Part shown: one piece after another, positions 12,484 to 50,327 of the stretch | Numbering within the stretch: the first letter of the stretch is position 1 | Layout of the letters: each line of letters begins with the position of its first letter | Source: Parcubacteria group bacterium | Lineage (GTDB): Bacteria; Patescibacteriota; Minisyncoccia; Minisyncoccales; UBA10102 | Length of the DNA: 64,000 nt | Direction: 5' to 3' | NCBI GenBank assembly: GCA_016203945.1 | Contig: JACQLT010000002.1 | Location: 797-64,796 of the forward strand | Made by a program: the position numbers and the translations under genes | The notes under the pieces: model-generated | What the model was told of the DNA's origin: nothing | The model's input: only the letters and a program-made list of their open reading frames with translations | The model's database searches: none

Positions 12484-13899
12484 TTATATACTGGTATTTG
12501 ATCTGGAACTGTTGTAATCGTCGGCTGCTTGTGCATGCACCTCAATAATTATGGCGCGGAGGTTTTCTATGTCTGTTTTAAGCTCCGCGGCTATGGCGCG
12601 GGCTTCTTCCGCAACTCCTCCTACATTTTCGCCCAAAAGCAGCGATTCATATTTCGCCTTAAGCTCTTCCATCTTTGCCTCGTTTTCAACGCTCATACTT
12701 TTAGCTTTCTCAATAAGCGGGGCTGTTGATGATGTATCAATCCCTTGCGCTTCAAGTTTTAGAATCCGCAATTCCAGCCGGCCTAAAATATGGTCAAACC
12801 GGGCCATTGCCGAGCGGTAACGATTGAGCATGCGCAATCCTTTGCCGTGGGCAACGGCAATGCGCGCCGTTTTTCCGTGATCCACATGGCCTATTGTTGT
12901 TTCAACATTTTCTCGGAAATTATCGCGAAGCGCTTTTGCGGCTTCATGAACTGCGGGCTCACGAACCTTCTGTACGGCCGGCAGTAATAAAGCGGATCGT
13001 TGTAGATCTGATAGCGCCGAATCGGTCTGATGTAAGAGCGCCCGCTCCAGTCCCAACACATCCGCAATCAAACCCTTGTCTTCCACAGCCGCAAGCAACT
13101 CAATGTCGCCCTCAACAATCTTTTTTACGGTCAGAAGCGACTGGATTGCCTCTTCTTTTCTGCCGTCTTTGATCGCCTTCTCTGCCTCAGTCGTCACGTC
13201 CGCCCTGCTCTTTGCATGGTCCCCAACCGTTATGCATACCTTTGTATCACAACCCTTGAGCCGTTCCTGTATCTTCCCAATGGTATTCTGCATCAACTCA
13301 ATCTTTTTACCAGGGATTCCTTGAATTTTAATATATGATTTAGATTGCGGGGTATCTCCTGCGCTAGGAGCAGAAACTTTACGTTGGTTTCCATCTGTAT
13401 CCTCAATCTGTGTTTCTCCTGCAGGTGCCGATTTAGTGTTGGATTTGGACTCGTTGTAGTTCTTTCCCGCGGCTGGAGCAGGAACCGCCCCTGAAGTAAA
13501 TTCTTTTTCGGGAGAATCAGCTCTGCGATCGGGAAAGCCGTGTGCGTTACCGTCTCCTGCAGATTCTTTTGTAGCAGAATCAGCTCCGGCGCCAAGCTCA
13601 TCAAGTTTTGTTAAAACTTCCTGGATGCCAGGGTCGCTTACACCAAATCTAACTAGCATCGCCCTGAGGTCAACCGTGCTAATGCCTCGAGCAAGAGCAT
13701 CCGTCACCTCATTGATCTCCGCGCCGCCAATGCCGTAGCGCAAAAGAATATCTCCAACGTGTTTGTTTGCTATTGGTATGTTTACTACTGATATTGAGGT
13801 ATTTGACCTCGAGCTGTTGTAATCGTCGGCAGAAAATACAGCCGCAGCAGAGAGTACCGCTGCCCCCACGATGAATATTGTGATTATTTTTATACGCAT
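12484..13899 (-). CDS. hypothetical secreted protein with identical 13-aa terminal peptides
   Basis: Signal peptide MRIKIITIFIVGAAVLSAAAVFS. ADDYNSSRSNTSI follows it directly and recurs as the last 13 residues. Helical C-terminal half; no family recognised. Confidence 0.6.
   Translation of the reverse strand: MRIKIITIFIVGAAVLSAAAVFSADDYNSSRSNTSISVVNIPIANKHVGDILLRYGIGGAEINEVTDALARGISTVDLRAMLVRFGVSDPGIQEVLTKLDELGAGADSATKESAGDGNAHGFPDRRADSPEKEFTSGAVPAPAAGKNYNESKSNTKSAPAGETQIEDTDGNQRKVSAPSAGDTPQSKSYIKIQGIPGKKIELMQNTIGKIQERLKGCDTKVCITVGDHAKSRADVTTEAEKAIKDGRKEEAIQSLLTVKKIVEGDIELLAAVEDKGLIADVLGLERALLHQTDSALSDLQRSALLLPAVQKVREPAVHEAAKALRDNFRENVETTIGHVDHGKTARIAVAHGKGLRMLNRYRSAMARFDHILGRLELRILKLEAQGIDTSSTAPLIEKAKSMSVENEAKMEELKAKYESLLLGENVGGVAEEARAIAAELKTDIENLRAIIIEVHAQAADDYNSSRSNTSI
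12487..12525 (-). repeat. C-terminal ADDYNSSRSNTSI coding copy
   Basis: GCC GAC GAT TAC AAC AGT TCC AGA TCA AAT ACC AGT ATA. Confidence 0.85.
13792..13830 (-). repeat. N-terminal (post-signal) ADDYNSSRSNTSI coding copy
   Basis: GCC GAC GAT TAC AAC AGC TCG AGG TCA AAT ACC TCA ATA. Same peptide; differs from 12487-12525 only at synonymous sites. Confidence 0.85.
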
Positions 13900-13949: not shown

Positions 13950-13996
13950 GAGGAAAAAAACGGCTGTGCGTGTCTGACTTGCACAGCTATGCAGGG

Positions 13997-14029
13997 GTCT
14001 CGGTCACCTGACTTAGCATATGACGGCTG
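13997..14029. repeat. 33-bp direct repeat, distal copy
   Basis: gtctcggtcacctgacttagcatatgacggctg, identical to 15049-15081. Confidence 0.9.
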
Positions 14030-14121
14030 TGTACCTTGGCCTAGAACCAAGGGGTTAAGAGGGATTTCATGGATTTCTAGGGATGTCTCATTGACCCGTC
14101 TCGGTCACACGATCAAATGGA

Positions 14122-14283
14122 CTAAGTAAATAAAAGTTTGAATATCTCAAATATGATCCAGGTAGTAATAAAGCCAATGCCGTACAAAAGCAAAAAACTT
14201 AGAAACGAACGTTTTTTATTGATACCAAAACTAACAACAAGTACTTCTACAGCAGCAAGTATTGCAATAAAATCGAAATTCAT
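14122..14283 (-). CDS. hypothetical 53-aa two-TM micro-protein
   Basis: Not in the ORF track (<60 aa). MNFDFIAILAAVEVLVVSFGINKKRSFLSFLLLYGIGFITTWIIFEIFKLLFT. ATG lies 1 nt after the upstream TAA. Confidence 0.35.
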   Translation of the reverse strand: MNFDFIAILAAVEVLVVSFGINKKRSFLSFLLLYGIGFITTWIIFEIFKLLFT

Positions 14284-14284
14284 A

Positions 14285-14458
14285 TTATTTTTCTAATCCT
14301 TTTTCGTGTAAACAATTCTCATGGAGAACTCCAGCGAATTCTTTTTTAGCACACTCTTTTCTGATTTGCGTCGGCCGCCACTCATACCAATAAAAAACAA
14401 ACTCTAAAACTATAAGCAGTATTAAGACGATGTATTTATATTGTTTTATTTTTCCCAC
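14285..14458 (-). CDS. possible 57-aa single-TM micro-protein (GTG start)
   Basis: VGKIKQYKYIVLILLIVLEFVFYWYEWRPTQIRKECAKKEFAGVLHENCLHEKGLEK. The only possible start is a GTG, with no SD. Confidence 0.2.
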   Translation of the reverse strand: MGKIKQYKYIVLILLIVLEFVFYWYEWRPTQIRKECAKKEFAGVLHENCLHEKGLEK

Positions 14459-14530
14459 ATACTTAGTTGAAGTCTATTTTAATGCAAGAGTATCTTAATC
14501 TATTCGTCTCGGTCGAGATTCTATCCAAAA

Positions 14531-15043
14531 TTATGGTGTTAATCGAAGCACTTTCTCAATAATGGGAAAAGCGAGAAAAAGAACCCATAATGATAAAATA
14601 ATATTTCCAGCCAGATATGCCGGTCCAGCTAAATGCGAGTTGAAATATGGGATAAAAGGAATAGCAATTAGCGCCAAAGCCACATTAGATAAGCAAACAA
14701 CTGCGAACGTCTTTAAATCAATTGTAAGTTCTCGCATGGAAGCTTCTATTTTTGTTATATCTTCGGCAATAACCCCTATAGGGACACTCATCCTATCTCG
14801 CTTCGTCTGATCTCGTTGCAATTTGAATACGGCAAGCATCCCCAAGAAAGCTACCAACGCAACAAATCCTTGGACTATGGTGCTGAACGAATAGTAGTAA
14901 ACATACGAACCTCCTTGTCCAAAGAGAGCCGTAAGGTCAAAAAGACCCTTCAGCAAATACGTAACTAGCCCACTCAAAAGAAACGGCATTATAATATGAC
15001 CGACTCTATATTTCCGCATAATTTTCTTTAATTTATTAGTCAT
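14531..15043 (-). CDS. hypothetical 4-TM membrane protein
   Basis: 170-aa ORF in the AT-rich islet with four hydrophobic helices. No family recognised. Confidence 0.55.
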   Translation of the reverse strand: MTNKLKKIMRKYRVGHIIMPFLLSGLVTYLLKGLFDLTALFGQGGSYVYYYSFSTIVQGFVALVAFLGMLAVFKLQRDQTKRDRMSVPIGVIAEDITKIEASMRELTIDLKTFAVVCLSNVALALIAIPFIPYFNSHLAGPAYLAGNIILSLWVLFLAFPIIEKVLRLTP

Positions 15044-15048
15044 AACGC

Positions 15049-15081
15049 GTCTCGGTCACCTGACTTAGCATATGACGGCTG
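15049..15081. repeat. 33-bp direct repeat, tRNA-proximal copy
   Basis: Identical to 13997-14029. Its last 3 nt are the 3' end of tRNA-Gln. Confidence 0.9.
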
Positions 15082-15149
15082 CGGGACCAGGATTCGAACC
15101 TAGATTAACGGATTCAGAGTCCGCTGTCCTACCATTAGACGATCCCGCA
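15079..15149 (-). tRNA. tRNA-Gln (anticodon CUG)
   Basis: rc: TGCGGGA-TC-GTCT..GGAC-A-GCGGA-CTCTGAA-TCCGT-TAAT-CTAGG-TTCGAAT-CCTGG-TCCCGCA-G. The U1-A72 pair is typical of bacterial tRNA-Gln. Confidence 0.88.
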
Positions 15150-15389
15150 ATGTTTCATTTTCGCTTTTAATGCGCGCTTCCCTTTTGCTGTTTTATAAAA
15201 TCGCTCGATTCTAAATGCCTCATATTTATCTTCGTATTGTTCAGAATAGATTAATTTTATTGGCAACCTATTCTTTGTAGAACGAACTCTTCCTGACTGA
15301 TGAATTGCGATTCGCTTGTTTAAATCTTCGGTGCATCCGATGTACAGATTACCATCTCTCTCGCTTCTCAAAATATACACCGTATGCAT
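15135..15389 (-). CDS. GIY-YIG (URI-domain) nuclease, 84 aa
   Basis: VYILRSERDGNLYIGCTEDLNKRIAIH..., with downstream R and E residues of the GIY-YIG fold. The last five codons plus stop (TGC GGG ATC GTC TAA) are nt 1-15 of tRNA-Gln. Confidence 0.85.
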   Translation of the reverse strand: MHTVYILRSERDGNLYIGCTEDLNKRIAIHQSGRVRSTKNRLPIKLIYSEQYEDKYEAFRIERFYKTAKGKRALKAKMKHCGIV

Positions 15390-15396
15390 ACTATAT

Positions 15397-15461
15397 GTCC
15401 TACCATTAGCCTCGCCCGTAGGCCAGTAGCCTTCGGGCTACGGCCGAGGGACGATCCCGCA
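15397..15461 (-). pseudogene. orphan tRNA-Gln 5' fragment interrupted by a 41-nt GC-rich hairpin
   Basis: TGCGGGATCGT + CCCTCGGCCGTAGCCCGAAGGCTACTGGCCTACGGGCGAGG + CTAATGGTAGGAC. No anticodon or T arm follows. Confidence 0.6.
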
Positions 15462-15482
15462 AAGTAGTGGACTGCGGTGCGA

Positions 15483-16394
15483 TTATACCTCCAAATACCG
15501 CCTCATTGCAATGGCGGCAGACAAGACGCCAAGGCCAATGCCGAGCACAAGCTGGAGGAGGAGGATGAGGAAGATGTTGGATAGGAAATAGCCTGCCAGG
15601 TTGAATCCCGGAAGCAGACGTTCCACGAATCCGCTGATGAGGAATACCGGAACCATGAACAGCAGGGTGGTGACAATGCTTGCGATGACGCCTATCATGG
15701 CTCCCTGCATGAAGAAGGGCCCCCGGATGAAGGCGTTTGAAGCTCCCACCAGGCGCATCACCTCAATCTCTTTTCTCGCGTGGTATATGGCAAGGCGGGT
15801 AGTATTGAATGCCACGAGCACTACCGCAATGCCGAACAGGAGCACCACGAGGAATCCGATCGTCTGAATGCCCGTTGTCAGGGCCCCTATCTTTTCAATC
15901 GTGGGCCGGCGGTCCTGATAGTCAATCTTCTCAATGATGGAAGCGGAATCCCCTCTCTGCAGCGCGTCCACCACCTTCGCGTAGTCCCCCTGCTCCCAGG
16001 TGCGGATGTTCAAAGAAGCAAGCAAAGGGTTCCTTCCCACTTCCTGGAGAGAAGACAGAATGACGGGATCGTTCTGATTCGCTTCGGTGAACTTCTTGAG
16101 CGCGTCCTCCTGGGAGACGTACTTTACGTCCCTAATCTCTGGAAGCTGGAGGAGCTGGGTCTGCACATCCAGAATGTTTTGCTCTGGAGTTTCCTTGAGA
16201 AAGTACGCGCTCACGTCAACGCGGCTCTCTAAAGCAAGCACCAGGAATGACGTGGCTCCCCGCACCAGGAACAGCGTTGTCGCCCCGGAAAGCGTGAGCA
16301 CCATAATGAACAGCAGGGCCATGGAAGAGCCCTTGTCCCTCAAAAAGCTCTGGTATCCGTACCTGGCGATGCGTTTTAATGAGACGAAAAACAT
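15483..16394 (-). CDS. ftsX: cell division permease FtsX
   Basis: TM1, extracellular domain, then three C-terminal TM helices. ATG 16394 (MFFVSLKRIARYGYQ) lies 4 nt after the ftsE stop. Confidence 0.85.
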   Translation of the reverse strand: MFFVSLKRIARYGYQSFLRDKGSSMALLFIMVLTLSGATTLFLVRGATSFLVLALESRVDVSAYFLKETPEQNILDVQTQLLQLPEIRDVKYVSQEDALKKFTEANQNDPVILSSLQEVGRNPLLASLNIRTWEQGDYAKVVDALQRGDSASIIEKIDYQDRRPTIEKIGALTTGIQTIGFLVVLLFGIAVVLVAFNTTRLAIYHARKEIEVMRLVGASNAFIRGPFFMQGAMIGVIASIVTTLLFMVPVFLISGFVERLLPGFNLAGYFLSNIFLILLLQLVLGIGLGVLSAAIAMRRYLEV

Positions 16395-22764: not shown

Positions 22765-23223
22765 TCAGAGCATAGTACGCAAACCTTTGTTTGTCAAGGC
22801 CTCATCCAATGCCTCGTTGACCATAGCGTCAGCCACCTTGTTCTGTTCTCTGGGCACCGCTTCAAAAGAGACGCTCTTGAAGTCCAGTTTGAGATTCCAG
22901 AGCTGAAGAAAAAACTGCTGCGTGGTTGGATGCTCCACCTTATACCTCCCCGTCATCTGTTTGACCATGAGTTCTGAGTCAGCGCGCACGAGCACATCCG
23001 CCTTCTTTGTTTTTCCTTTTCCAATGAGAGCTTTCAGTTTCTTGAGGGCTGAGATTGCCGCTCTGTACTCTGCTTCGTTATTCGTCGTTGTTCCCAAAAA
23101 CTCTCCTTGCTTCTTTATCAGGCGCCCTTGCGTATCATAGATGGCAAATCCCAAGGCAGCCGGGCCCGGGTTTCCCCGCGCTCCCCCGTCCGTATACAGG
23201 ACAAACGAATTATATTCGGACAT
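22765..23223 (-). CDS. rnhA: ribonuclease HI
   Basis: LYTDGGARGNPGPAALG, TNNEAEYRA, D/E catalytic pattern. Confidence 0.88.
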   Translation of the reverse strand: MSEYNSFVLYTDGGARGNPGPAALGFAIYDTQGRLIKKQGEFLGTTTNNEAEYRAAISALKKLKALIGKGKTKKADVLVRADSELMVKQMTGRYKVEHPTTQQFFLQLWNLKLDFKSVSFEAVPREQNKVADAMVNEALDEALTNKGLRTML

Positions 23224-24370: not shown

Positions 24371-25424
24371 CGTAATATCCCAATGCCGCCAATCCCGGAA
24401 GCCGATCTCCCGCAAGAAACGCGAGCAACGCCCCCCCTCCGGTTGAGACATGACTGAACTTATCCTGCAATCCCTGCTTTCGCAAAAACGCGTTTAGATT
24501 TCCTCCGCCGGCAACCGAATACGCATGGCTCGCAATGACGGCCTGAGCCAGGGCGAGAGATCCTTTCTTATATTCCTCCTCTTCCACCCTCCCCACGGGA
24601 CCCGACCAAAATACGGTTTTTGCGTCCTTTAGCATCTCGCAAAACAGCGCGATGGTGCCAGGTCCGATATCAAAATTCAGTCCGTTGCCCGGATTCCCGT
24701 CAACTGGTTTCACAACCTTCTGCATATTCTTAAACCGTATGTTCTTTAACTCAAGCTCTCTGGCGATGAGATTGCTCACCAGAAGCGCGTCCGCGGCCTC
24801 GGAAATCGTATCCAGAAAATCCGCCTTGGTCTCCACCTTTGTGCCCCCGACGATGACGACCATGGGCTTTGCGGGGTTCTTGAGCAAGGGTTCTAGGGCC
24901 CGTACCTCTTCAAGAAGCGCCAGCCCAGCGAACGAAGGAATCAAAGAGGGCAGCTGGTCTATTGATGCATGGGCCCGATGGCTCGCGGAAAACGCTTCGT
25001 TGACGTATTGGTCTCCCAGACGAGCCAACTGTTTGGCGAACTCGGGGCTGTTCTTTTCTTCTCCTTCATGGAAACGCAGGTTTTCAAGCAAGAGCACGTC
25101 TCCCGGCTTTATCGCCAGGATTGCGTTCTCCACATCCTTGCCGACGCAGTCATCCGCCTTGTTCACAGGGATGCCGAGAAGCGAAGCCAGCTGAGAGCGT
25201 ACCGAGTTGAGCCGAAATCGCTCCACTACCTTGCCTGCGGGCCTATCCAAATGGCTTATGAGAATGACCTTTGCCCCCTCTTGCACCAGGTATCGTATGG
25301 TTCTGAGCGCGGAAACAATGCGCAAATCGTCCAGAATATTGCCCTGCTCATCTAAAGGAACGTTGAAGTCGCATCGAACAAGCACCCGTGTATTAAGGAC
25401 CTGGGCCTGCTGGATGCTCTTCAT
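24360..25424 (-). CDS. pgk: phosphoglycerate kinase (short form)
   Basis: RCDFNVPLDEQG, ISHLDRP, VVIVGGTKVETK, STGGGALLAFL. Confidence 0.92.
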   Translation of the reverse strand: MKSIQQAQVLNTRVLVRCDFNVPLDEQGNILDDLRIVSALRTIRYLVQEGAKVILISHLDRPAGKVVERFRLNSVRSQLASLLGIPVNKADDCVGKDVENAILAIKPGDVLLLENLRFHEGEEKNSPEFAKQLARLGDQYVNEAFSASHRAHASIDQLPSLIPSFAGLALLEEVRALEPLLKNPAKPMVVIVGGTKVETKADFLDTISEAADALLVSNLIARELELKNIRFKNMQKVVKPVDGNPGNGLNFDIGPGTIALFCEMLKDAKTVFWSGPVGRVEEEEYKKGSLALAQAVIASHAYSVAGGGNLNAFLRKQGLQDKFSHVSTGGGALLAFLAGDRLPGLAALGYYDGN

Positions 25425-27091
25425 TGAGAATCAAATGAAACGGTCTGTCCGGGCTCCAGGTTCCCCTGTTCGCCCCCCCCGGAAGGAGCTTTCTGTTCAA
25501 GGGCAGAAAACAGGGCTTTTCGCACTGCGTCCCGGTCTATATCTTTATGAGGCCTGTTCGTTTCCCGGTTTTGCCTTGAAGGATGAAACAAGACGGGCTC
25601 GATAGAATGCGCCTGATTGAAAGAAGGGGGGCGCCGCTGCTGTAGTTTTTTCCGGCAGGACTTGCAGTAGGTCGGGCGCTTGCCGTCCGGCTGGAACACA
25701 ACTTTCGTGTCCCTGCCGCAGATGCTGCACCTGGCGTCATATAAAGCCTGAGGCTGTTCTTGGGGCGCAAAAGGAGCAGTGCGCAGCTGAGAAGAAGGGG
25801 CTGTTGATTGAATCCCCACCCAGTCTGCGATGCTTTCCTCCACTCTGGCTACCTGAGTGCCGTACGTTTGTCTGGAAGCTGCGATGATTTCTTGTTCGTG
25901 CGAATCTGCGGGGCGCGCCTGGGGAGCGAGCGTACTCGCCGAAAAAGGCTTTCCCGCGATGCCGTCTATCATGAGTTTTACGTACGCGTGATATTTCGTA
26001 AGATTCACAAAATCCTGCAGGAGAAAGTCCGGGGAGAACTCTTTTTCAAGCACTTCCGCGTCCTCGGCTCCCACGCGGAATGTCACGATGGTTCCCATGT
26101 TTCCGAATACGGCGTCGCGCACCTGCGCCTGGTCCCCCGTTCCCAGCTGGGCTATATACTGATGACTCAGGATAAGGGCCAAGCGGTATTTTCTGGCCTC
26201 TGAAAGAATGTTTACGAAGCTCTCTGTGGCGAAGTTCTGAAACTCGTCAATGTACAAGAAGAAATCTTTGCGACTCTGTTCTGGAATATCCACGCGAGAC
26301 ATGGCAGCCAGCTGGAGCTTGGTGATGAGCAGGGCTCCCAAGAGTCTGGAGTTATCCTCCCCGATCCTCCCTTTCGCGAGATTCGCGATAAGAATTTTCT
26401 GCCCGTCCATGATTTCGCGCATGTTGATGGTGGAGTGGGTCTGACCAATGATGTTGCGCACAAGCGGGTTGGCGATGAACTGACCAACCTTGTTTTGAAT
26501 TGCGGCCGTTGCCTCTACCTCATAGCGCTGCGTGTACCTTGCGTATTCCTGCGTCCAAAACGCCTTTACCACGGGGTCCCCGATGTTGTTCACCACCCGT
26601 TTTCGGTATTCAACGTCAGCCAGCATGCGGTTTACTCCCAACAGCGTGGAACCCGGAGATTCCAGAAGCGCCAAAATCGCGTTGTTGAGAATATACTCCA
26701 TGCGGGCAGACCACACGTCAGGCCAGATCTTCTTGAACACAGACATGAGGCCGGAAGCCACCAAGTGCCGGAACTCGGGGCCCACGTCTTCCATGACGTT
26801 AAAGGCAATGGGATACGCCATGTCGGCCGGATTAAAATACACTACGTCCTGCACGCGCTCTTTCGGCACGAAATGAAGAATCTCTTCTGCGGCCTCTCCG
26901 TGCGGGTCAACGAATCCGACTCCCTCGCTCCCCACGATGTCCTGAATGATCATCTGCTCTAACATAGAGGTCTTGCCCATGCCGGTCTTGCCAAGCACAT
27001 AGAAATGGCGGCGCCTGTCGTCGCGCTTGATGCCGAATTTCTGCCGCCGATTGCGAAAAGTTGTCTCTCCGAAAAAATTAATGTCTATCAT
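25421..27091 (-). CDS. FtsK/HerA-superfamily, VirD4/TraD-like P-loop ATPase with C-terminal CxxC-x17-CxxC zinc ribbon
   Basis: YVLGKTGMGKTS (Walker A), FFLYIDEFQNF (Walker B), ARKYRLALILSHQ, then CSICGRDTKVVFQPDGKRPTYCKSC at 25655-25729. Confidence 0.75.
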   Translation of the reverse strand: MIDINFFGETTFRNRRQKFGIKRDDRRRHFYVLGKTGMGKTSMLEQMIIQDIVGSEGVGFVDPHGEAAEEILHFVPKERVQDVVYFNPADMAYPIAFNVMEDVGPEFRHLVASGLMSVFKKIWPDVWSARMEYILNNAILALLESPGSTLLGVNRMLADVEYRKRVVNNIGDPVVKAFWTQEYARYTQRYEVEATAAIQNKVGQFIANPLVRNIIGQTHSTINMREIMDGQKILIANLAKGRIGEDNSRLLGALLITKLQLAAMSRVDIPEQSRKDFFLYIDEFQNFATESFVNILSEARKYRLALILSHQYIAQLGTGDQAQVRDAVFGNMGTIVTFRVGAEDAEVLEKEFSPDFLLQDFVNLTKYHAYVKLMIDGIAGKPFSASTLAPQARPADSHEQEIIAASRQTYGTQVARVEESIADWVGIQSTAPSSQLRTAPFAPQEQPQALYDARCSICGRDTKVVFQPDGKRPTYCKSCRKKLQQRRPPSFNQAHSIEPVLFHPSRQNRETNRPHKDIDRDAVRKALFSALEQKAPSGGGEQGNLEPGQTVSFDSQ

Positions 27092-34893: not shown

Positions 34894-36342
34894 TCAGGGC
34901 AGGAACACGAAATTATGAAACTGCCATGGATCGGAATCCGAAACGCTTGCCGGATTGCCTTGAAAATATGTGGTGCGATTTTTTAATGGAGTCCAGTCGG
35001 AAGGAGTAGAGATGAATTCGCCCAGATATGGTTTGGCGATATCCAGCACAAAGTCATGCGGCAGGTCATCTGGCAAATTGATGCCTTTGTTCGGATTCTC
35101 AAGCATCCAAAGCACCGCGGCAATGACTCCGGCCGCCACTTGAAGCGTAGTGGCATTTTGGTTCGGGATCAGACGCCTGGTCTCTTCAATAGAGAGATTG
35201 CTTCCGGTCCACCACGAGCCATATGCATGCCCCATAAGAAGGGCTCCCAGGATATCGGCTCCCGTAGTGATCTCGTTCGACATGATGCGCTGCTTTGCAG
35301 GCAACACGTAGTTCAGACCGCGCAATTCGTGCAACGAAGAAAGTGTCTCGTGGCACGGCATATAGGCATAGTGCACGGTCGGACGATGAACTACTTGGCC
35401 GTTTTCCCAAACAGTAAGCCGATCAGAAATACCGAATGCCTCTCCGTGCCGAATCACCATGCCGACGATTTCCTCGTCTGGAATCCACGACCTCACCCAG
35501 GTATTCATCCCCATCTGGTTCAGGAAAATCTGATTTTTCGGGCCATATTCGGGAACAACCGCATGCGCGGGAATTTTCTTTTCGTGCGTGCCCCAGCCCA
35601 TTTCAGAGGGCGCACTTCCCTCTTCACGCAATCCCTCAATGCTCCACGTGCCGACAAATTCGTTGACCTCTTTGGGCTGGTTTGTGATCTGCGTGTCGCG
35701 CTCTGAGCAATGAATCACCTTGACTCCAAGCTTTTGGGCGAGCTTCGCAAAGTTGCGGTCTTTCACGTACCGATTAATTTCTTCCTGGTCTGCTTGCGAA
35801 ACTTTTTTGTCTGCAATAAGCCTGTTGCCAATATCCACCAAGCCCTGCTTGGTAAAGTGAGAAATGAGCCCCGGATTTGCCCCGTGGTCCACGACAGCGG
35901 TAGTCGAGTTTTTCCAATCCTTGCCAAGCTCAGCCAATTGCATCTGCAGGAAATACAGTGATTTTTGAAGCGGAGTTTCCGTCTGAATCCCGGTGTAGGG
36001 ATCCCATGTCTCCACCGAAGTGTTGACATACAATACATTGTGGTTATGACACCACGTCAGAATGTCCACACAGCCGATATTCCAAGCCAAATCAATGATC
36101 AACCCTCCATCATCCACATTCTCAGAGAGAATTTTGTCAAGGTTCTCTTTGACGATCTTTTTCTTTACATATTTCACTCCCAGGTCCGTATATTTTTTCA
36201 ACGCTTCGGATTTGTCGTCAAAATCAATGACGGTCACGTTTGAAAACGGCGCATCTATCTTTTCAAACAAAAGCGGAATCGTACACTGAGAGACGGACCC
36301 GTATCCGATAACAAGAATTTTATGGCCAAATTTCTTTTTCAC
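34894..36342 (-). CDS. hss: homospermidine synthase
   Basis: ILVIGYGSVSQCTIPLL, HGANPGLISHF, FVGTWSIEG, SIEETRRLIPNQNATTLQVAAG and DPWQFHNF parallel the bacterial HSS sequence as I recall it (from memory, no alignment run). GTG start. Confidence 0.88.
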   Translation of the reverse strand: MKKKFGHKILVIGYGSVSQCTIPLLFEKIDAPFSNVTVIDFDDKSEALKKYTDLGVKYVKKKIVKENLDKILSENVDDGGLIIDLAWNIGCVDILTWCHNHNVLYVNTSVETWDPYTGIQTETPLQKSLYFLQMQLAELGKDWKNSTTAVVDHGANPGLISHFTKQGLVDIGNRLIADKKVSQADQEEINRYVKDRNFAKLAQKLGVKVIHCSERDTQITNQPKEVNEFVGTWSIEGLREEGSAPSEMGWGTHEKKIPAHAVVPEYGPKNQIFLNQMGMNTWVRSWIPDEEIVGMVIRHGEAFGISDRLTVWENGQVVHRPTVHYAYMPCHETLSSLHELRGLNYVLPAKQRIMSNEITTGADILGALLMGHAYGSWWTGSNLSIEETRRLIPNQNATTLQVAAGVIAAVLWMLENPNKGINLPDDLPHDFVLDIAKPYLGEFISTPSDWTPLKNRTTYFQGNPASVSDSDPWQFHNFVFLP

Positions 36343-36395
36343 TTTTTGTATTATCTTTTCGAAGATTTTTTTATGAAAAATTCTTCGATTACATC

Positions 36396-36423
36396 ATCGT
36401 ACAACAGCCAAGAGTGTTGTCAA
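36396..36423 (-). promoter_or_regulatory. promoter TTGACA-N16-TACGAT upstream of hss
   Basis: rc of 36418-36423 = TTGACA and rc of 36396-36401 = TACGAT. The 53-nt leader contains an AT-rich imperfect palindrome (36361-36388). Confidence 0.45.
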
Positions 36424-36433
36424 GAGTTTTTTG

Positions 36434-36466
36434 GCAAAAAATAAAAAACGGGCAGCTTGGTGCCCG
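36434..36466 (-). terminator. rho-independent terminator after the secA/DUF3850 unit
   Basis: CGGGCACC-AA-GCTGCCCG followed by TTTTTTATTTTTTG. Confidence 0.7.
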
Positions 36467-36497
36467 ATATCTTTTGAAAATTTTGCTCTCGCAGTGA

Positions 36498-36764
36498 TTA
36501 TTCCAGAGAAATAATCTGGATTCCCTTTTCTTTTATTTCACTTTCTGGCCAAAATAGCTTATCAATTTTAAATTTCGCAACATAGTTTACTTTCTTCTCA
36601 GTCTTTCTGCCTGTATATGCTTTCGTCTTCTGGTCCCACTCTTCCAATACGAGCATATCGCCTTCTGCAACGTCAAAATCATCCAGCCGCAGCTCAAACT
36701 TCTTTTTCCCGGAAGCAACTGCTTCAAAATACTCCGGCCAGATTTTCTTCTTGATGATTGCCAT
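36498..36764 (-). CDS. ASCH/DUF3850-like small protein
   Basis: MAIIKKKIWPEYFEAVASGKKKFELRLDDFDVAEGDMLVLEE. ATG 36764 lies just after the secA stop. Confidence 0.6.
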   Translation of the reverse strand: MAIIKKKIWPEYFEAVASGKKKFELRLDDFDVAEGDMLVLEEWDQKTKAYTGRKTEKKVNYVAKFKIDKLFWPESEIKEKGIQIISLE

Positions 36765-36765
36765 G

Positions 36766-39234
36766 CTATTGTCCGTGGCAACGTTTATATTTTTTGCCAG
36801 AACCACAGGGACACGGATCATTCCTTCCCACTTTTGGCATAGACTGTACGGGCTTGCCCTCCGAAGCCCCGAGCGAAGTCGAGGGGACAGAGGTGGAAGC
36901 CAACTTCATATTCATGATGGTTTCTGCGATCAAAGCGTCTATGATCTGCAAAAGACCCTGAAACATCTTGTGCCCCTCGTTCTTGTATTCCACCAAAGGG
37001 TCCTGCTGGCCGTACGCGCGCAATCGCACAGAATCCCGCAGCTGCTCCATGTTCTCCAAGTGTTCCACCCACGAGGAATCAATGACGCGCAGAGGAATGA
37101 TCCTCTCTGCCTGGCGCATGTTCTCCTCACCAACCTCCTGTTCTTTCTTCTCATACTCTTCTTGCGTGTGTCCTGCCTTTTGCGTAATAGCCATGATCTT
37201 GGACCTCAGCTGCGCGGGGTCCTGCTGCTCCAGCATCTCGTTCCTCTTGCGATACATTGTCTCTCGATGCCGGTTCAGTACGTCGTCATACTCAAGCAAA
37301 TGCTTCCTGGCGTCAAAGTTGAATCCTTCCACCTTGCCCTGGGCAGACTCAATGGCCTTGGAAACCATAGCGTGCTGAATGGGCTCGCCTTCCGGCAAGT
37401 GGAATTTTTCCATGATGCCTTTTAGCTTGTCCCCTCCGAATATTCTCATGAGGTCGTCCTCCAGGGATACAAAAAACTGGGAAGAGCCCGGATCTCCCTG
37501 CCTTCCAGACCTGCCGCGCAGCTGGTTGTCAATACGGCGGGCCTCGTGGCGTTCGGTACCGATAACATAAAGACCGCCCAGGCTTCGACACTGCTCAGCC
37601 TCTTTAAGAACCTGCGGGTTCCCTCCGAGAACGATATCCACGCCCCGGCCCGCCATGTTGGTCGCTATGGTCACGGCCCCCTTTCTTCCTGCCTGCGCGA
37701 TGATGGCTCCCTCTCGCTCGTGGTTCTTCGCGTTCAGCACCTCGTGGGGAACGCCGTCCCGCGACAGCAGCTGCGAAAGACGCTCGTTCCTCTGGATGGA
37801 AGCCGTGCCAACGAGCATGGGCTGCCCTTTGAGGTGTCGTTCTTTCACTTCCCGCACAACGGCATTGAACTTTTCTTCTTCTGTTTTATACACCAGGTCC
37901 CGAAGATCCTGGCGGACTAAAGGCTTGTTCGTTGGAATCGAAAGCACGTCAATGTTATATACCTTGTGAAACTCCTCAGCTGAAGTGAGAGCCGTGCCGG
38001 TCATGCCGGCCAACTTCTTATACATGCGGAAATAGTTCTGGAACGTGATAGAGGCCAGCGTCAAGGATTCCGGCTGCACGAATACATTCTCTTTTGCCTC
38101 AAGCGCCTGGTGCAAGCCTCCTGAATATCTGCGGCCCGGAAGCAAACGGCCCGTGAACTCGTCCACGATGACGAGCTGCCCGTCTTTCACCACGTAGTCG
38201 CGGTCCCGCTGAAACATCGCCTCTGCTCGCAGGGCTTGCTCTAAATGATGCAGATACTTGATCCCTTTTTCCTGATAGATATCTCCTGCTCCGATGAGTT
38301 CTTGAACATGGTCAATCCCGTGTTCGGTCAGCGTGACCGCTTTTCTTTTTTCGTCTATTTCATAATCGGTTTCGGCTTTGAGTTTTGGAATCAATCTCGC
38401 AAAATCTTTGTACCAGGAAGAGCTTTGCGTATCGGGGGCTGAAATAATAAGCGGGGTACGCGCTTCGTCAATAAGAATAGAGTCGACTTCGTCTACGATG
38501 GCAAAGTTATGCCCCCGCTGCACCATATGCGCCAAGTCGTAGACCATGTTGTCTTTGAGATAATCGAATCCGAATTCATTGTTTGTGCCATATGTAATAT
38601 CCGCAGCGTATGCGTCTTTTCGTGAAACCGGCCTTAAAAACTTTTCCACTATCTTGAATCCTCCCACGGCATCCCTCTCCTTATCGATAGGCTCGCCCTC
38701 CGAAGCTTTAGCGAAGGAGGGGTCATATATATATGAGGTGTCGTGCACGATACATCCCACCGACAGCCCCAGCGCGTGGTAGATCTGACCCATCCAGGCG
38801 GCGTCCCGGCGCGCAAGATAGTCGTTCACCGTCACCACGTGCACTCCCTTGCCCTCCAGTGCATTCAGGGCAGTTGCCAGGGTTGCGACAAGCGTCTTTC
38901 CTTCTCCGGTCTTCATTTCCGCGATCTTTCCCCGATGCAAAGCAATGCCGCCCATAAGCTGCACGTCAAAATGGCGCTGACTCAAAGTGCGCAAGGCAGC
39001 TTCTCTCACAAGCGCAAAGCACTCCGGCAGCACGTCGTTGAGCGTTTCACCTGCCTCGCCGGTAGGCGGGCCCTTTTGGACCCGCTCGCGCAGCTGGCTG
39101 AAACGTTCTGCGAGCTGTGCCAAGGAAAGATCCTTGAGCGCAGTTTCCTCTCCATTAATCTCCTCGACCAAAGGACGCATGCTCGCAACAACGCGCTCAT
39201 CCGCATCTCCTAAGATTTTGCCGAGTATGCTCAT
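36766..39234 (-). CDS. secA: preprotein translocase ATPase SecA
   Basis: [42 protein letters not shown]-terminal zinc finger [14 protein letters not shown]. Confidence 0.96.
36853..36886. repeat. GC-rich repeat copy in frame near the secA C-terminus
   Basis: cttgccctccgaagccccgagcgaagtcgagggg, translated as [22 protein letters not shown] arms flank the CCGAAGC..AGCGAAG core. Confidence 0.65.
38692..38722. repeat. GC-rich repeat copy in frame inside secA
   Basis: ctcgccctccgaagctttagcgaaggagggg, translated as [11 protein letters not shown]. Confidence 0.65.
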
Positions 39235-47556: not shown

Positions 47557-49584
47557 TCACGGATTCTGCCCGAGAGAAGATATGCGAAGTTTCGCTTTCA
47601 GAAGCTGCTCGTACTCTTTCCGAAGTAGTTCGAATACCGCATCCTGATCATATTCCCGCTCCACCTTTTTTCTCCCCTCCTCCCCCATTACTTTGGCTTC
47701 TTCCGGATGAGAAAGAATATGCTCAATCGCCTCCGCCAGCTTTGCTGGATTACTGGAAGGAACCAGGAATCCCGTCTTTTTGTCATCCACCCCCTCCCTG
47801 CATCCTCGAATATCAGAAGCCACAACAGGTCTCTTCATCGCAGAGGCCTCTAAAATGGAGAGCCCCAGTCCTTCCCTGTACGAAGGCAGGACGAAGACAT
47901 CCATAACGGAATACAGCTCGATGACGTCTATGCGCTCTCCAAGAAACAGCACCTTGTCCCGGATGCCGTATGTATCAACAATGTTTTTATCCAGCGCATC
48001 TCTTTTTTCTGGCTCCTCCGGTCCTATGATAAGCAGTACTGTATTCGGAAATCGTTTTAGGATTTGGACAAACGCGGCAAAAAGAGGAATAAATCCCTTT
48101 TCTCTCACCAAGCGAGCCACAATTCCAACAACCTTCGTATTGAGAGGAACGCCTATTTCCCGCTTCTTTTGCGCGATGAACTCTTTTGAAAATCGACTCG
48201 GATCAAATTTTCGAAGGTTAATGCCTCCTCCGACATATATTACTTTTCCAGAGGGGTAAATCCCATGACCAGTTAAAAATGCGACATCTTCCTTGTTTAC
48301 CGAAAATGCCTTATGGACGATTTTTGCGATAATCCTCTCTATGGGAATAAAGATGAATTTCTTTTGCCAGGAAGAATCTTTCTGAAAATAGAGCCCGTGA
48401 ATGGTCGTGATGCGAACTGGAACTCTTGCGAAGAATGCCGCGAGCTGTCCCAAGAAACTTGCCTTGGGCGTATGAGTGTGCACAATATCAAATCGCTCTT
48501 TTTTGAAAAACCAATAAAGTCTAAATAATGCCGCAAGGTCTGCAATTGGGGTAAAGAGCCGCCTTGTAATCATAGTGGTCTGCACCTTTATTCCGGTATT
48601 TCTGATTTCTGGCACCCATTTCCCATCCGAAGATGCCGCATGCACCTCGTATTTCTCTTTCTGAAGGTAGCGCATAAAATCCAGGAGAAGAAACCGCAGA
48701 GAAATATCTGCGGACGCCACCTGGCATATTTTAAACATACGATCCTGTTCTTTGTGGGAACGAGCTCCCCTTAATTGATACCCCATCCCTTTTATCCCTC
48801 GCCTCAAAGAAGCAGGGACAAGATAGCTCACATATCCTCTTGCAATGCCAAGAGAGGCCCGCAAGCTCTTTGGGTAAAACCCCTCTCTAAGAGCTTTCTG
48901 TCTTGCCTTGAGCGCAAAGAGCGCCTGTTCTCTGTTTCTGGTCCGCGTGATGGAATCAGGGGCAAATCGGTAGGTGGTCAAATATGCAGAGAGATTCGCA
49001 GTGTCGTAGAATTTTGCAATGCGGAAATAAAGCTCGTAATCTTGAGTGTATTTCCAGCGCTCATCGTACCAGCCAACCTTGTCGAGGGCCTCTTTTCTCA
49101 TCATGATGGCCGAGTGTACGAATGGGTTAGTGAAAATAAGCGCTCTTTTGAGGGCGGCGCTATCTGTGGGAAGTTTCTTTTTGTTCGCTATGGTTCCCTC
49201 CTTGTCCATCTCATACGCCCAGGTGCCCAGAAGGGCGCAGGAAGGATTGGCTTCAAGAAACTCCACTTGAAGCTGAATCCTTTCCTTGTGTGCGATGGCT
49301 TTGTCGTCTACACGAGCAATATACTTTCCCTTCGCTTCCCTCAAGGCCTTGTTGAGAGATTTGGTAAGGCCAAGGTTTGTTTGATTGCTCAGGAGCCGGA
49401 TCCTTGCGTCTCGAACGGCGTATTCTTTGAGTATGTGAGAAGTTTCATCCGAAGAAGCATCATCTACGATAAGAAGTTCCAGATTTTTGTAGCTTTGAGA
49501 AAGAATGCTTTCTACGGACTCTTTGAGAAGCGAAGCGCGGTTGCGAGTAGCCATGACTACGGAAACAAGAGGTCTGTTTTTCAT
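47557..49584 (-). CDS. bifunctional glycosyltransferase, GT2 (N-terminal) + GT4 (C-terminal)
   Basis: VSVVMATRNRASLL..LELLIVDDASSDET (GT2). REGLGLSILEASAMKRPVVASDIRGCREGV (GT4 E-x7-E region). Confidence 0.85.
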   Translation of the reverse strand: MKNRPLVSVVMATRNRASLLKESVESILSQSYKNLELLIVDDASSDETSHILKEYAVRDARIRLLSNQTNLGLTKSLNKALREAKGKYIARVDDKAIAHKERIQLQVEFLEANPSCALLGTWAYEMDKEGTIANKKKLPTDSAALKRALIFTNPFVHSAIMMRKEALDKVGWYDERWKYTQDYELYFRIAKFYDTANLSAYLTTYRFAPDSITRTRNREQALFALKARQKALREGFYPKSLRASLGIARGYVSYLVPASLRRGIKGMGYQLRGARSHKEQDRMFKICQVASADISLRFLLLDFMRYLQKEKYEVHAASSDGKWVPEIRNTGIKVQTTMITRRLFTPIADLAALFRLYWFFKKERFDIVHTHTPKASFLGQLAAFFARVPVRITTIHGLYFQKDSSWQKKFIFIPIERIIAKIVHKAFSVNKEDVAFLTGHGIYPSGKVIYVGGGINLRKFDPSRFSKEFIAQKKREIGVPLNTKVVGIVARLVREKGFIPLFAAFVQILKRFPNTVLLIIGPEEPEKRDALDKNIVDTYGIRDKVLFLGERIDVIELYSVMDVFVLPSYREGLGLSILEASAMKRPVVASDIRGCREGVDDKKTGFLVPSSNPAKLAEAIEHILSHPEEAKVMGEEGRKKVEREYDQDAVFELLRKEYEQLLKAKLRISSLGQNP

Positions 49585-50327
49585 ATGCGCTTTCTGAGAA
49601 AAAACTTACGAAAAAAAAATTTAATGTCGTACCAGAGAAAAAAGGGGATCAAGGCAAGCCCTTTGATCTTTGCTTTTTGTTTTGCTTTCTTCAGATCTTC
49701 TCCGCCAAGCACCAGGGAAAGCGCTTTTGCAAGTTGCGCAGGGGCTGGTTGAAGTTCCAAAAATGCGATGAGTTTTCTCATGGTGCCTTGGGTATTCTCG
49801 AGCATTTCTTCATAGGAAATTTCAAGCGTCCGGAGATCAGGGTTTCTTTCAAAAAATTCTTTAATGCGCTCTTCGTACACACGAGTAATTCGTAAGGCTT
49901 CATCTCTCCGCATCCCTGACCTCTTCTGTAAGGACTCGGCAATCTGGTTGGGATTTCTCTTGCAATGAATAAAATAAGGATTTCTCAAGAAGGGAAAGTA
50001 GAGAGATATGGTGAGGCTCGTACGAGGATCTTTCCAGCCCCAAAGATCTCGCTCTGATCTTGCAATAAGATTTTTTATTCTTGGAGCAAAACGATCTCTA
50101 ATCGCTTCAAGCTCGGAAAGAGAAGGGGGGTGAGCCGCGTCTCCATTCGCTGCGAGCAGGAGGGTATCATTCAGCTCTACAAATTCCGCATTCTCAAAAT
50201 GGCCGAGGGGATTTGAGGATGTCGCTCCAATCAGCTTCTTTCCCAGATGCACCCCCAAGACATTCAAGATGCTTGCTGTCAAAGAGGTGCCGGATCGATG
50301 CATGCCAATCACGACTATGGTTTTCAT
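49581..50327 (-). CDS. PAPS-dependent sulfotransferase family protein
   Basis: VVIGMHRSGTSLTASIL matches the 5'-phosphosulfate-binding loop of sulfotransferases. 4-nt overlap with the GT gene. Confidence 0.7.
   Translation of the reverse strand: MKTIVVIGMHRSGTSLTASILNVLGVHLGKKLIGATSSNPLGHFENAEFVELNDTLLLAANGDAAHPPSLSELEAIRDRFAPRIKNLIARSERDLWGWKDPRTSLTISLYFPFLRNPYFIHCKRNPNQIAESLQKRSGMRRDEALRITRVYEERIKEFFERNPDLRTLEISYEEMLENTQGTMRKLIAFLELQPAPAQLAKALSLVLGGEDLKKAKQKAKIKGLALIPFFLWYDIKFFFRKFFLRKRI

Follow-up and report, generated by a model that had tools for sequence, protein, structure and literature searches.

Candidate foreign cassettes at a reusable insertion site downstream of tRNA-Gln in a Parcubacteria bacterium

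The window analysed here is a 64-kb stretch of a metagenome-assembled genome from an uncultured member of the Parcubacteria group, and the subject is a short AT-rich islet just behind its tRNA-Gln(CTG) gene. Comparison with related contigs indicates that the islet is foreign cargo lodged in a reusable insertion slot. The informative boundaries are copies of a 9-mer, GACCGAGAC, that split the islet into two cassettes. Features of the locus lie on the minus strand, and the 9-mer is given in minus sense. Bacteria of the candidate phyla radiation (CPR) have tiny genomes, and little is known of how they gain accessory genes. The locus would offer a compact and recurrent route in which one tRNA gene serves as promoter, landing pad, and homology anchor for cassettes of 0.4-1 kb.

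The slot and its contents

The related contigs (L016-L024) were reached through FtsX homologues at 71-92% identity, and the comparison covers approximately 8 loci from approximately 5 lineages. Species-representative genomes gave no usable relatives by FtsX or by the four-helix membrane protein family encoded in the islet. A metagenome scan with the four-helix family gave only 4 loci, all from clades otherwise represented. In all related contigs, ftsX is followed by tRNA-Gln(CTG), and a promoter-like sequence (GCCATTGCAATG..GGAGGTATAA) precedes the tRNA gene.

The DNA behind the tRNA gene differs from contig to contig. L016 and L017 (FtsX 90%) have an empty slot, where a type-2 trailer ending in GACCGAGAC is followed directly by an expanded copy of a conserved element, here called X. 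L019 (FtsX 85%) has a 33-mer identical to that of the window, a DUF4145 gene, GACCGAGAC-X, and two further units made up of a gene plus X. L018 and L020 have the same layout, but a 326-nt GIY-YIG gene takes the place of GTCATATG inside the trailer. L023 (FtsX 85%) carries a degenerate type-1 trailer and two transmembrane open reading frames (ORFs) ahead of GACCGAGAC-X. In L021 (FtsX 71%), a type-2 trailer precedes a 194-aa ORF and then TGCTAAAATGACCCC-GACCGAGAC. L022 (FtsX 91%) has a LAGLIDADG gene 5' of the tRNA gene, and its contig stops in the trailer. Relatives with 85-92% identical FtsX share no cargo with the window.

The junction 9-mer, with at most one mismatch, closes the trailer and opens X in the window, L016, L018, L019, and L021. 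L023 retains only the copy that opens X, and its trailer copy is degenerate (3 mismatches). Filled slots are flanked by the 9-mer, apart from this degenerate copy, and the empty slot has a single copy. The 9-mer is held even where the remaining trailer has diverged into two types. An earlier note, made from the letters of the window alone, had counted four copies of this motif. The count is correct: all four copies in the 64 kb lie at this locus, with 0.37 expected, and one position given as ~14507-14515 was off by one base. Copies #1-#3 bound the two cassettes, and copy #4 closes a second copy of the trailer.

Copy #3, which opens X, is part of an inverted repeat at 14092-14107, TGACC-GAGACG-GGTCA, with arms of 5 bp separated by 6 nt. 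The arms differ at their outer position in a covarying manner, TGACC/GGTCA in the window and CGACC/GGTCG in L023, a pattern drawn from two sequences only. Copy #2 has no significant X or trailer homology around it. To its left, GAATCTC resembles the right ends of cassettes in L019 (TAATCTCC) and L023 (TAATCCC). The sequence after this copy was considered as a possible degraded X; its score was barely above that of shuffled controls and was driven by the 9-mer itself. The 9-mer holds GAGAC/GTCTC, which we take to be the core of several type IIS restriction sites, and GAGAC is present two to three times within X. Its CCGAG presumably matches CNNNG, a motif for which the nuclease domain of I-TevI has a preference, and this is a lead only.

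The AT-richness described in the earlier note is borne out by windowed G+C content (GC), which is 0.33-0.41 across 14100-15400 compared with ~0.53 in the flanks and 0.50 in the whole window. The islet itself has a GC of 0.36. The low-GC tract reaches beyond tRNA-Gln to ~15400, and its upstream part holds a GIY-YIG ORF that had been missed. Cargo in all relatives has a GC of 0.29-0.43 versus 0.47-0.54 for FtsX, including soluble cargo (DUF4145, HAD, and hydrolase proteins). This composition points to a foreign origin.

Cassette 1 encodes a four-helix membrane protein of 170 aa and cassette 2 two small hydrophobic ORFs of 57 and 53 aa, as the earlier note had listed them. All window cargo shares its orientation with tRNA-Gln, and a promoter scan found no promoter before the 170-aa gene. 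Homologues of the 170-aa protein number 17 (27-59% identity), and a wider search placed 412 representative clusters in its family at E<=1e-3. The AlphaFold2 model of this protein (pLDDT 84) contains four long helices and has no fold match in the PDB or BFVD. The 57-aa and 53-aa ORFs have no homologue at any fetched locus and only weak PHROG matches. No islet cargo has a significant Pfam, PHROG, or PADLOC match. A proposed effector, immunity, or abortive-infection role thus goes unsupported by these searches and by the fold comparison.

A four-helix homologue is also found in L003, with no tRNA gene near it. Directly before the homologue is an 18-codon ORF starting MNFNFIAIL, which matches the N-terminus of the 53-aa ORF. 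This gene order is a circular permutation of that in the window. A long GC-rich inverted repeat lies just upstream of the homologue. The repeat and the small ORF together are noted at L003 7470-7720 and 7956-8012.

The 33-mer, GTCTCGGTCACCTGACTTAGCATATGACGGCTG, forms the direct repeats from which the islet was first recognized. Both exact copies were found, with no other match in the window at <=3 mismatches and 0 expected. The proximal copy does overlap tRNA-Gln, as claimed, and only 3-5 nt of the exact repeat belong to the tRNA gene. The 33-mer is native trailer and not private to the islet, since it is identical in L019 even though the tRNA-Gln genes are 77% and the FtsX DNA 82% identical. 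Beyond the 33/33 identical positions, the repeat continues in register for a further 22 nt at 59% (13/22), giving 55 nt in total at 82%. A trailer after X is seen in no relative, and among the loci compared it is private to the distal 33-mer of the window.

These results bear on the earlier suggestion of a decayed or non-autonomous integrated element. Foreign, non-autonomous DNA at a tRNA-linked site stands, but the 33-mer as an element-specific attachment site does not. The same note had allowed that the 33-mer might prove to be a tRNA-trailer element unrelated to mobility. It is a trailer, but one tied to mobility, because it ends in the junction 9-mer and because a GIY-YIG gene is inserted inside it in L018. 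The comparison of relatives at the repeat boundaries, which the note had proposed, does reveal empty and differently filled slots, but at 9-mer and not at 33-mer boundaries. Its interpretation as a whole is partly supported.

Element X is 80-88% conserved in an alignment across relatives, and a sequence model of X (R1) matches only downstream of tRNA-Gln in this clade and once in the window. X follows successive cassettes in relatives and also adjoins the empty slot in L016. Three copies stand in succession in L019 as a 110-nt repeat with 75-88% identity, and every copy is followed within 0-6 nt by the next start codon. By alignment, X predates the divergence of the window lineage from that of L019. 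A likeness to the T arm and 3' acceptor strand of tRNA-Gln is confined to its last 28 nt (z 2.7-6.0) and does not extend to its 5' part. The hairpin CCTTGG-TTCTAGG-CCAAGG-TACA at 14030-14052 (minus strand) had been described as T-arm-like, and it is in register with the real T arm of tRNA-Gln. It is not a relic private to the islet but the 3' end of the conserved X. The ends of X are direct repeats (GACCGAGAC ... GACCGAGG), not inverted ones.

Other identities of X were tried and rejected. An RNA gene is unsupported: the alignment fold has two short hairpins with one covarying pair, the single-sequence z is -1.5, and X has no Rfam match. A whole decayed tRNA does not fit, the likeness to tRNA-Gln being limited to the last 28 nt. 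An attC site is not indicated either, as X and the 103-nt unit, folded as DNA, do not surpass their shuffles (z -0.9 to +0.2).

From promoter to terminator, the order of the locus is dead 5' tRNA fragment, GIY-YIG gene, tRNA-Gln, trailer, cassettes, X, and second trailer. The terminator-like hairpin starts 9 nt past the distal 33-mer. A terminator scanner overlooked it because its loop is longer than 8 nt. To judge from this order, the locus may be a single transcription unit.

Homing endonuclease genes and exchange of tRNA-Gln

Homing endonuclease genes are located on both sides of tRNA-Gln in these genomes. Those 5' of the tRNA gene are type-W GIY-YIG genes (window, L008) and LAGLIDADG genes (L016, L017, L022). 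Those inside or after the trailer are type-L GIY-YIG genes (L018, L020, L005-L008, L010, L011). Type W is 29-33% identical to the type-L genes found 3' of tRNA-Gln in L005 and L018. In L008, a type-W C-terminus stands directly 5' of tRNA-Gln. The presence and absence of such genes can be seen in near-identical DNA for type L, in L018 versus L019; for type W, only L024 is uninterrupted.

The GIY-YIG protein of the window consists of the catalytic domain only, without a DNA-binding domain. Its gene sits between a dead 5' fragment of tRNA-Gln and the intact tRNA gene, and its last 15 nt are nt 1-15 of tRNA-Gln. The dead copy stands at the native distance from the promoter-like site, and in L024 this leader is followed by a tRNA 5' end without interruption. 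The GIY-YIG gene therefore lies in the tRNA leader, and the 25-nt duplication keeps the tRNA whole. This duplication looks like a way for an endonuclease gene to occupy an essential tRNA unit without destroying it.

Several side features accompany these genes. Upstream, L016 and L017 retain a tRNA D-loop remnant, TCTAATGGTAG, and L022 has a small DUF433-like ORF in addition to its LAGLIDADG gene 5' of tRNA-Gln. Short GC-rich hairpin inserts, often with CTTCGG or CGAA tetraloop-like centres, break noncoding sequence at these loci (window 15410-15449; L016 7149-7174 and 7215-7235; L018 5625-5700; L008 205-250). Among the sequences they interrupt are X of L016 and, in the window, the dead tRNA fragment.

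A clean endonuclease gene insertion sets L018 apart from L019. The 1133 bp downstream of this 326-nt GIY-YIG insertion are 100% identical in the two. Identity upstream is 98.4%, and 19 of the differences crowd into the 66 bp before the tRNA gene. Such clustering is expected if flanking DNA came in with the endonuclease gene.

The tRNA-Gln gene is itself exchanged, at a much higher rate than the tRNA genes near it. In a comparison of the window with L018, tRNA-Gln is 77% identical, compared with 96% for tRNA-Thr and 99% for tRNA-Gly, 3.5 kb away. Among relatives, tRNA-Gln is 73-94% identical, out of step with FtsX relatedness. By FtsX, L021 is the relative furthest from the window, and yet its tRNA-Gln is 94% identical to that of L016. 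L016 and L022, both among the closest to the window by FtsX, have tRNA-Gln genes with just 73% identity. Many of the differences among relatives fall in stems. The homing endonuclease genes embedded in the same tRNA transcription unit may drive this turnover.

A further Parcubacteria clade (L005-L008, L010, L011) carries tRNA-Gln(CTG), a GIY-YIG gene, and a four-helix homologue, with overlapping ORFs. In L009, a four-helix homologue follows tRNA-Gln(TTG). L005 5617-6713 and L006 2321-3417 are 99.9% identical over 1097 bp from the first tRNA base, and their upstream DNA is 74-90% identical. In L008 255-1335, 945 bp match at 99.5%, and the match begins 4 nt ahead of the GIY-YIG start codon. The tRNA-Gln of L008 is its own (82% identical), and an extra 3'-half fragment of tRNA-Gln lies between that gene and the module. 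The GIY-YIG and four-helix module is thus 99.5-99.9% identical amid flanks that are 74-90% identical or unrelated, with breakpoints at tRNA-Gln. On these alignments, the module of this clade appears clearly mobile.

Proposed entry and spread of the cassettes

On balance, and with much room for doubt, we favour a reading in which non-autonomous cassettes enter by site-specific insertion at the 9-mer core and are spread by recombination that endonucleases stimulate. The platform in this clade would start with the promoter and tRNA-Gln, continue with a trailer of 19-20 nt that closes in the core GACCGAGAC, and end with the slot and X. The islet would be the present slot content, namely two 9-mer-bounded cassettes without a recombinase gene of their own. 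These cassettes would be transcribed from the tRNA promoter, with transcription ending at the hairpin past the distal repeat.

Entry and spread would involve successive steps. A cassette would first enter through site-specific recombination at TGACC-GAGACG-GGTCA, perhaps by way of a circular intermediate and with an enzyme presumably encoded elsewhere in the genome. The 33-bp repeats would then be the trace of a recent single crossover in the trailer. This crossover would have put a 1052-bp unit (cassettes plus X) into the tRNA-trailer-terminator site. The attachment site of the unit would be X plus trailer, mimicking the tRNA 3' end plus trailer. Finally, filled alleles, tRNA gene included, would spread between strains by homologous recombination. 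The resident homing endonucleases would stimulate this last step; the window encodes a GIY-YIG protein, and relatives have either this kind or LAGLIDADG.

Two patterns argue for this reading. At least 5 unrelated cargoes are found at one 9-mer, and an internal 9-mer lacks surrounding homology, which makes site-specific entry the simplest account. The exact 33-bp repeat lies beside a tRNA-like segment at 59%, which suggests a recent single crossover within the trailer.

Several points weigh against it. The absence of an integrase or recombinase, stated in the earlier note, holds for the islet ORFs and for the larger ORFs (>=90 aa) scanned in window 1-31.5 kb, and the Pfam and gene lists of the approximately 8 related loci contain none; the key enzyme is hypothetical. 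That part of the window is composed of housekeeping genes, e.g., rpsB, prfA, gap, ftsZ, a DEAD helicase gene, prfB, ftsE, ftsX, lepA, murJ, and secDF. For the window's own species, neither an empty site of the form tRNA-33mer-CCCTGCATAGC nor a circle junction was recovered. Crossovers at the 9-mer alone leave the 33-bp repeat unexplained, with no relative having a trailer after X, and homing by double-strand-break repair alone creates no direct repeats. The sample of loci and lineages is small, and the covariation in the inverted repeat comes from two sequences. Loci L005-L011, including L009, hold the same membrane-protein family by tRNA-Gln without the 9-mer and X, and there the cargo travels by another route.

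The main rival dispenses with a site-specific recombinase and has a modest chance of being right. Here homing-endonuclease breaks, followed by homologous recombination or gene conversion after DNA uptake, would do all the work. The tRNA gene with its trailer and X would be homology arms, the 9-mers parts of these arms, and the cassettes hitch-hikers. The 33-bp repeat would have arisen when a single crossover of the RecA type took place or when a rearranged donor served as template for repair. Endonuclease genes at the locus in the window, L016/L017, L022, L018/L020, L005-L008, and L010-L011 fit this account, as do the clean presence and absence of such a gene in L018/L019 beside clustered mismatches. 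The 99.5-99.9% identical modules that break at the tRNA gene, the tRNA-Gln alleles swapped among relatives, and the lack of a nearby recombinase are also in its favour. However, the first slot entry of each cargo is left unexplained, while five unrelated cargoes share a 9-bp boundary. The 9-mer at 14506-14514 has no significant flanking homology, and 9 bp is too short for RecA-type exchange. In addition, the window GIY-YIG is a catalytic domain only (84 aa) and lies 5' of the tRNA gene, away from the islet. This rival accounts for spread and not for the repeated use of one 9-mer.

A bolder extension of site-specific entry places tRNA-Gln at the head of an integron-like capture platform, which we regard as doubtful. 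Promoterless cassettes would be captured at GACCGAGAC (TGACC-N6-GGTCA) by a non-IntI, non-local recombinase and expressed from the tRNA promoter. X would punctuate the array, and rival endonucleases (GIY-YIG, LAGLIDADG) would drive the platform and the tRNA allele. As a mimic of the tRNA 3' end that abuts the next start codon, X could be a recombination site, an RNA-processing signal, or both.

Vertical inheritance and an assembly artefact are both unlikely. An ancestral, vertically inherited locus is improbable. X and the second trailer would then be a decayed tandem duplicate of tRNA-Gln and its trailer, and differences between relatives would reflect gene loss. The ORFs would be ordinary lineage-specific genes, AT-rich through membrane-protein composition. 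The resemblance of the last 28 nt of X to the tRNA-Gln 3' end, the age of X relative to the window/L019 split, and the linkage of the four-helix family to tRNA-Gln in several clades fit such an origin. Uniform decay, however, is incompatible with 33/33 identity beside 13/22, and soluble cargo (DUF4145, HAD, hydrolase) is AT-rich too. Vertical descent also sits badly with the lack of cargo in common among relatives with 85-92% identical FtsX, with the clean insertion that separates L018 from L019 in otherwise identical DNA, with 99.9% identical modules in diverged flanks, and with tRNA-Gln relatedness that departs from that of FtsX.

An artefact, in which a 1.05-kb segment from a free circle or another strain was threaded into the assembly through the shared 33-mer, is very improbable: a separate Logan islet contig with overlapping ends exists and a circle would yield the same graph, but a repeat-induced break in the chromosomal path gives the same contig ends, the overlap differs from the 30 nt (k-1) that a clean circular unitig would have, filled slots of the same architecture were assembled independently in L018, L019, L021, and L023, and the unit lies coherently between promoter and terminator.

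Both islet junctions (trailer-GCGTT-ATG and X-trailer) recur in Logan assemblies of two further sequencing runs. In these k=31 assemblies, the islet is a separate contig of 1072-1073 nt whose ends overlap by 20-21 nt within the 33-mer. These contigs were rejected as proof of a circle, as their ends also fit a repeat-induced break. Contigs L001 and L002 (window 14007-15079) end at nt 23 of the distal 33-mer, not at the expected nt 30, which may point to a sequence variant that branches off at this position in the samples concerned.

Among known systems, cis-mobilizable elements (CIMEs) are decayed integrative elements that keep attL and attR and have lost their integrase, as in the Streptococcus ICESt1 family (PMC5704250). 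CIMEs and the arrays formed by their tandem accretion share with the locus an integrase-less segment, direct repeats that reach, here by 3-5 nt, into a tRNA gene end, cargo arrays parted by att-like remnants resembling the tRNA 3' end, and a presumed need for a trans-acting enzyme. In the islet, attL/attR-like repeats are kept, and integration and transfer genes are lost. The units here differ in being single, apparently promoterless genes of 0.4-1 kb instead of several kb, and nearly all of the identical core belongs to the trailer instead of the tRNA gene. Among the ORFs scanned, no integrase gene of the sort found in tRNA-associated islands stands beside the repeats.

A cognate autonomous element with the same att site was absent from related loci, viral contigs, and phage and plasmid collections, within the limited sampling of CPR bacteria. 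Scans of viral contigs with the trailer, both halves of X, and the four-helix family gave only one chance match, a high-GC phage gene (L025). BLAST of 13997-15470 against phage and plasmid collections matched only the tRNA itself.

Integrons are similar in that a row of single-gene cassettes in one orientation, which here appear to be promoterless, follows an upstream promoter, here a putative one. A short conserved core bounds each cassette, and in L019 a repeated site of 80-110 nt lies between cassettes. The platform here differs in being a tRNA gene, and X differs from attC in its direct ends (GACCGAGAC ... GACCGAGG) and in lacking an imperfect-palindrome fold. No intI or attI accompanies the array, and ftsX, ftsE, and prfB lie upstream. 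The locus works like CIME or tandem-accretion arrays and resembles integrons in its logic, but it is neither as these are defined, because there is no cognate autonomous element, no intI, and no attC fold.

The SegB protein of phage T4 is a free-standing GIY-YIG endonuclease encoded in a phage tRNA cluster, and its gene is reported to move with flanking DNA (PMC2330249). The two systems share a GIY-YIG gene among or next to tRNA genes and transfer of this gene with its flanks, which the L018/L019 insertion and the clustered mismatches suggest here. The present locus differs in belonging to a cellular CPR genome instead of a phage. It also differs in encoding a predicted nuclease of 84 aa, with a GIY-YIG catalytic domain and without a DNA-binding domain. 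The gene, moreover, would lie inside the tRNA transcription unit, flanked by the 25-nt duplication that keeps the tRNA intact.

Miniature inverted-repeat transposable elements and insertion sequences do not match the locus. Terminal inverted repeats are absent from the islet and from X, and the same flanking repeat is always found at the same locus.

Integrative mobile elements exploiting Xer (IMEXs) are integrase-less elements that use the host Xer tyrosine recombinases at dif, a short site of inverted arms and a 6-nt spacer. The site described here is a tRNA trailer, not dif, and its sequence is unrelated to known dif sites. Xer use at the 9-mer core, suggested by this analogy, would be pure conjecture.

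The literature searched contains no description of such an arrangement in CPR bacteria. If the 9-mer core is a true recombination site, the locus would represent a new cassette system, either integrase-less or with an integrase acting in trans, and the 9-mer and X would be a sequence handle for mining CPR accessory genes. If it is not, the locus would still document, as a clear example from nature, how endonucleases drive the turnover of a tRNA gene that is essential.

Coordinates and neighbouring features

Table 1. Features of the tRNA-Gln locus; positions refer to the window unless a contig is named
Feature	Position	Strand	Basis or description
Promoter-like site TTGCAA-18-TATAAT	15482-15511	-	Inside ftsX 3' end; 10/12 matches; putative function
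Dead copy of tRNA-Gln nt 1-25	15396-15461	-	Broken after nt 12 by 40-nt GC-rich hairpin at 15410-15449
Stand-alone GIY-YIG ORF, type W, 84 aa	15135-15389	-	Pfam PF01541, E 8.9e-15, 55 bits vs cut-off 22.6
Intact tRNA-Gln(CTG)	15077-15149	-	ARAGORN; Rfam gives 15079-15149, 63.9 bits
Proximal 33-mer	15049-15081	-	tRNA end CAGCC (5 nt) and native 28-nt trailer, closing in 9-mer #1 (15049-15057)
Cassette 1, ORF of 170-aa four-helix membrane protein	14531-15043	-	ATG 5 nt past 9-mer
Junction 9-mer #2, GACCGAGAC	14506-14514	-	Separates cassettes 1 and 2
Cassette 2, two small hydrophobic putative ORFs	14122-14458	-	57 aa, 14285-14458; 53 aa, 14122-14283
Element X, 82 nt	14025-14106	-	Opens with 9-mer #3, closes with tRNA-3'-like 28-nt stretch including hairpin
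Distal 33-mer	13997-14029	-	CAGCC (end of X) and second trailer copy, closing in 9-mer #4 (13997-14005)
Terminator-like hairpin GCTGTGC-11 nt-GCACAGC, then CG and T7	13954-13987	-	Fold prediction and sequence reading; putative function
All copies of GACCGAGAC	13997-14005, 14098-14106, 14506-14514, 15049-15057	-	Exact search
LAGLIDADG genes 5' of tRNA-Gln	L016 6330-7037; L017 1135-1719; L022 3432-4367		Same position as type W

Downstream of the islet, window 12484-13899 (minus strand) encodes a secreted-looking protein of 471 aa with no Pfam match. It contains the 13 residues ADDYNSSRSNTSI twice, just past the signal-like N-terminus and at the extreme C-terminus. Elsewhere, the window encodes an RNase H/RVT_3 protein (22765-23223) and a TrwB/TraG-like coupling ATPase with a zinc finger (25421-27091). 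Further low-GC patches are observed at 36001-37000 (0.415) and 48001-50000 (0.45), and these might be other islets.

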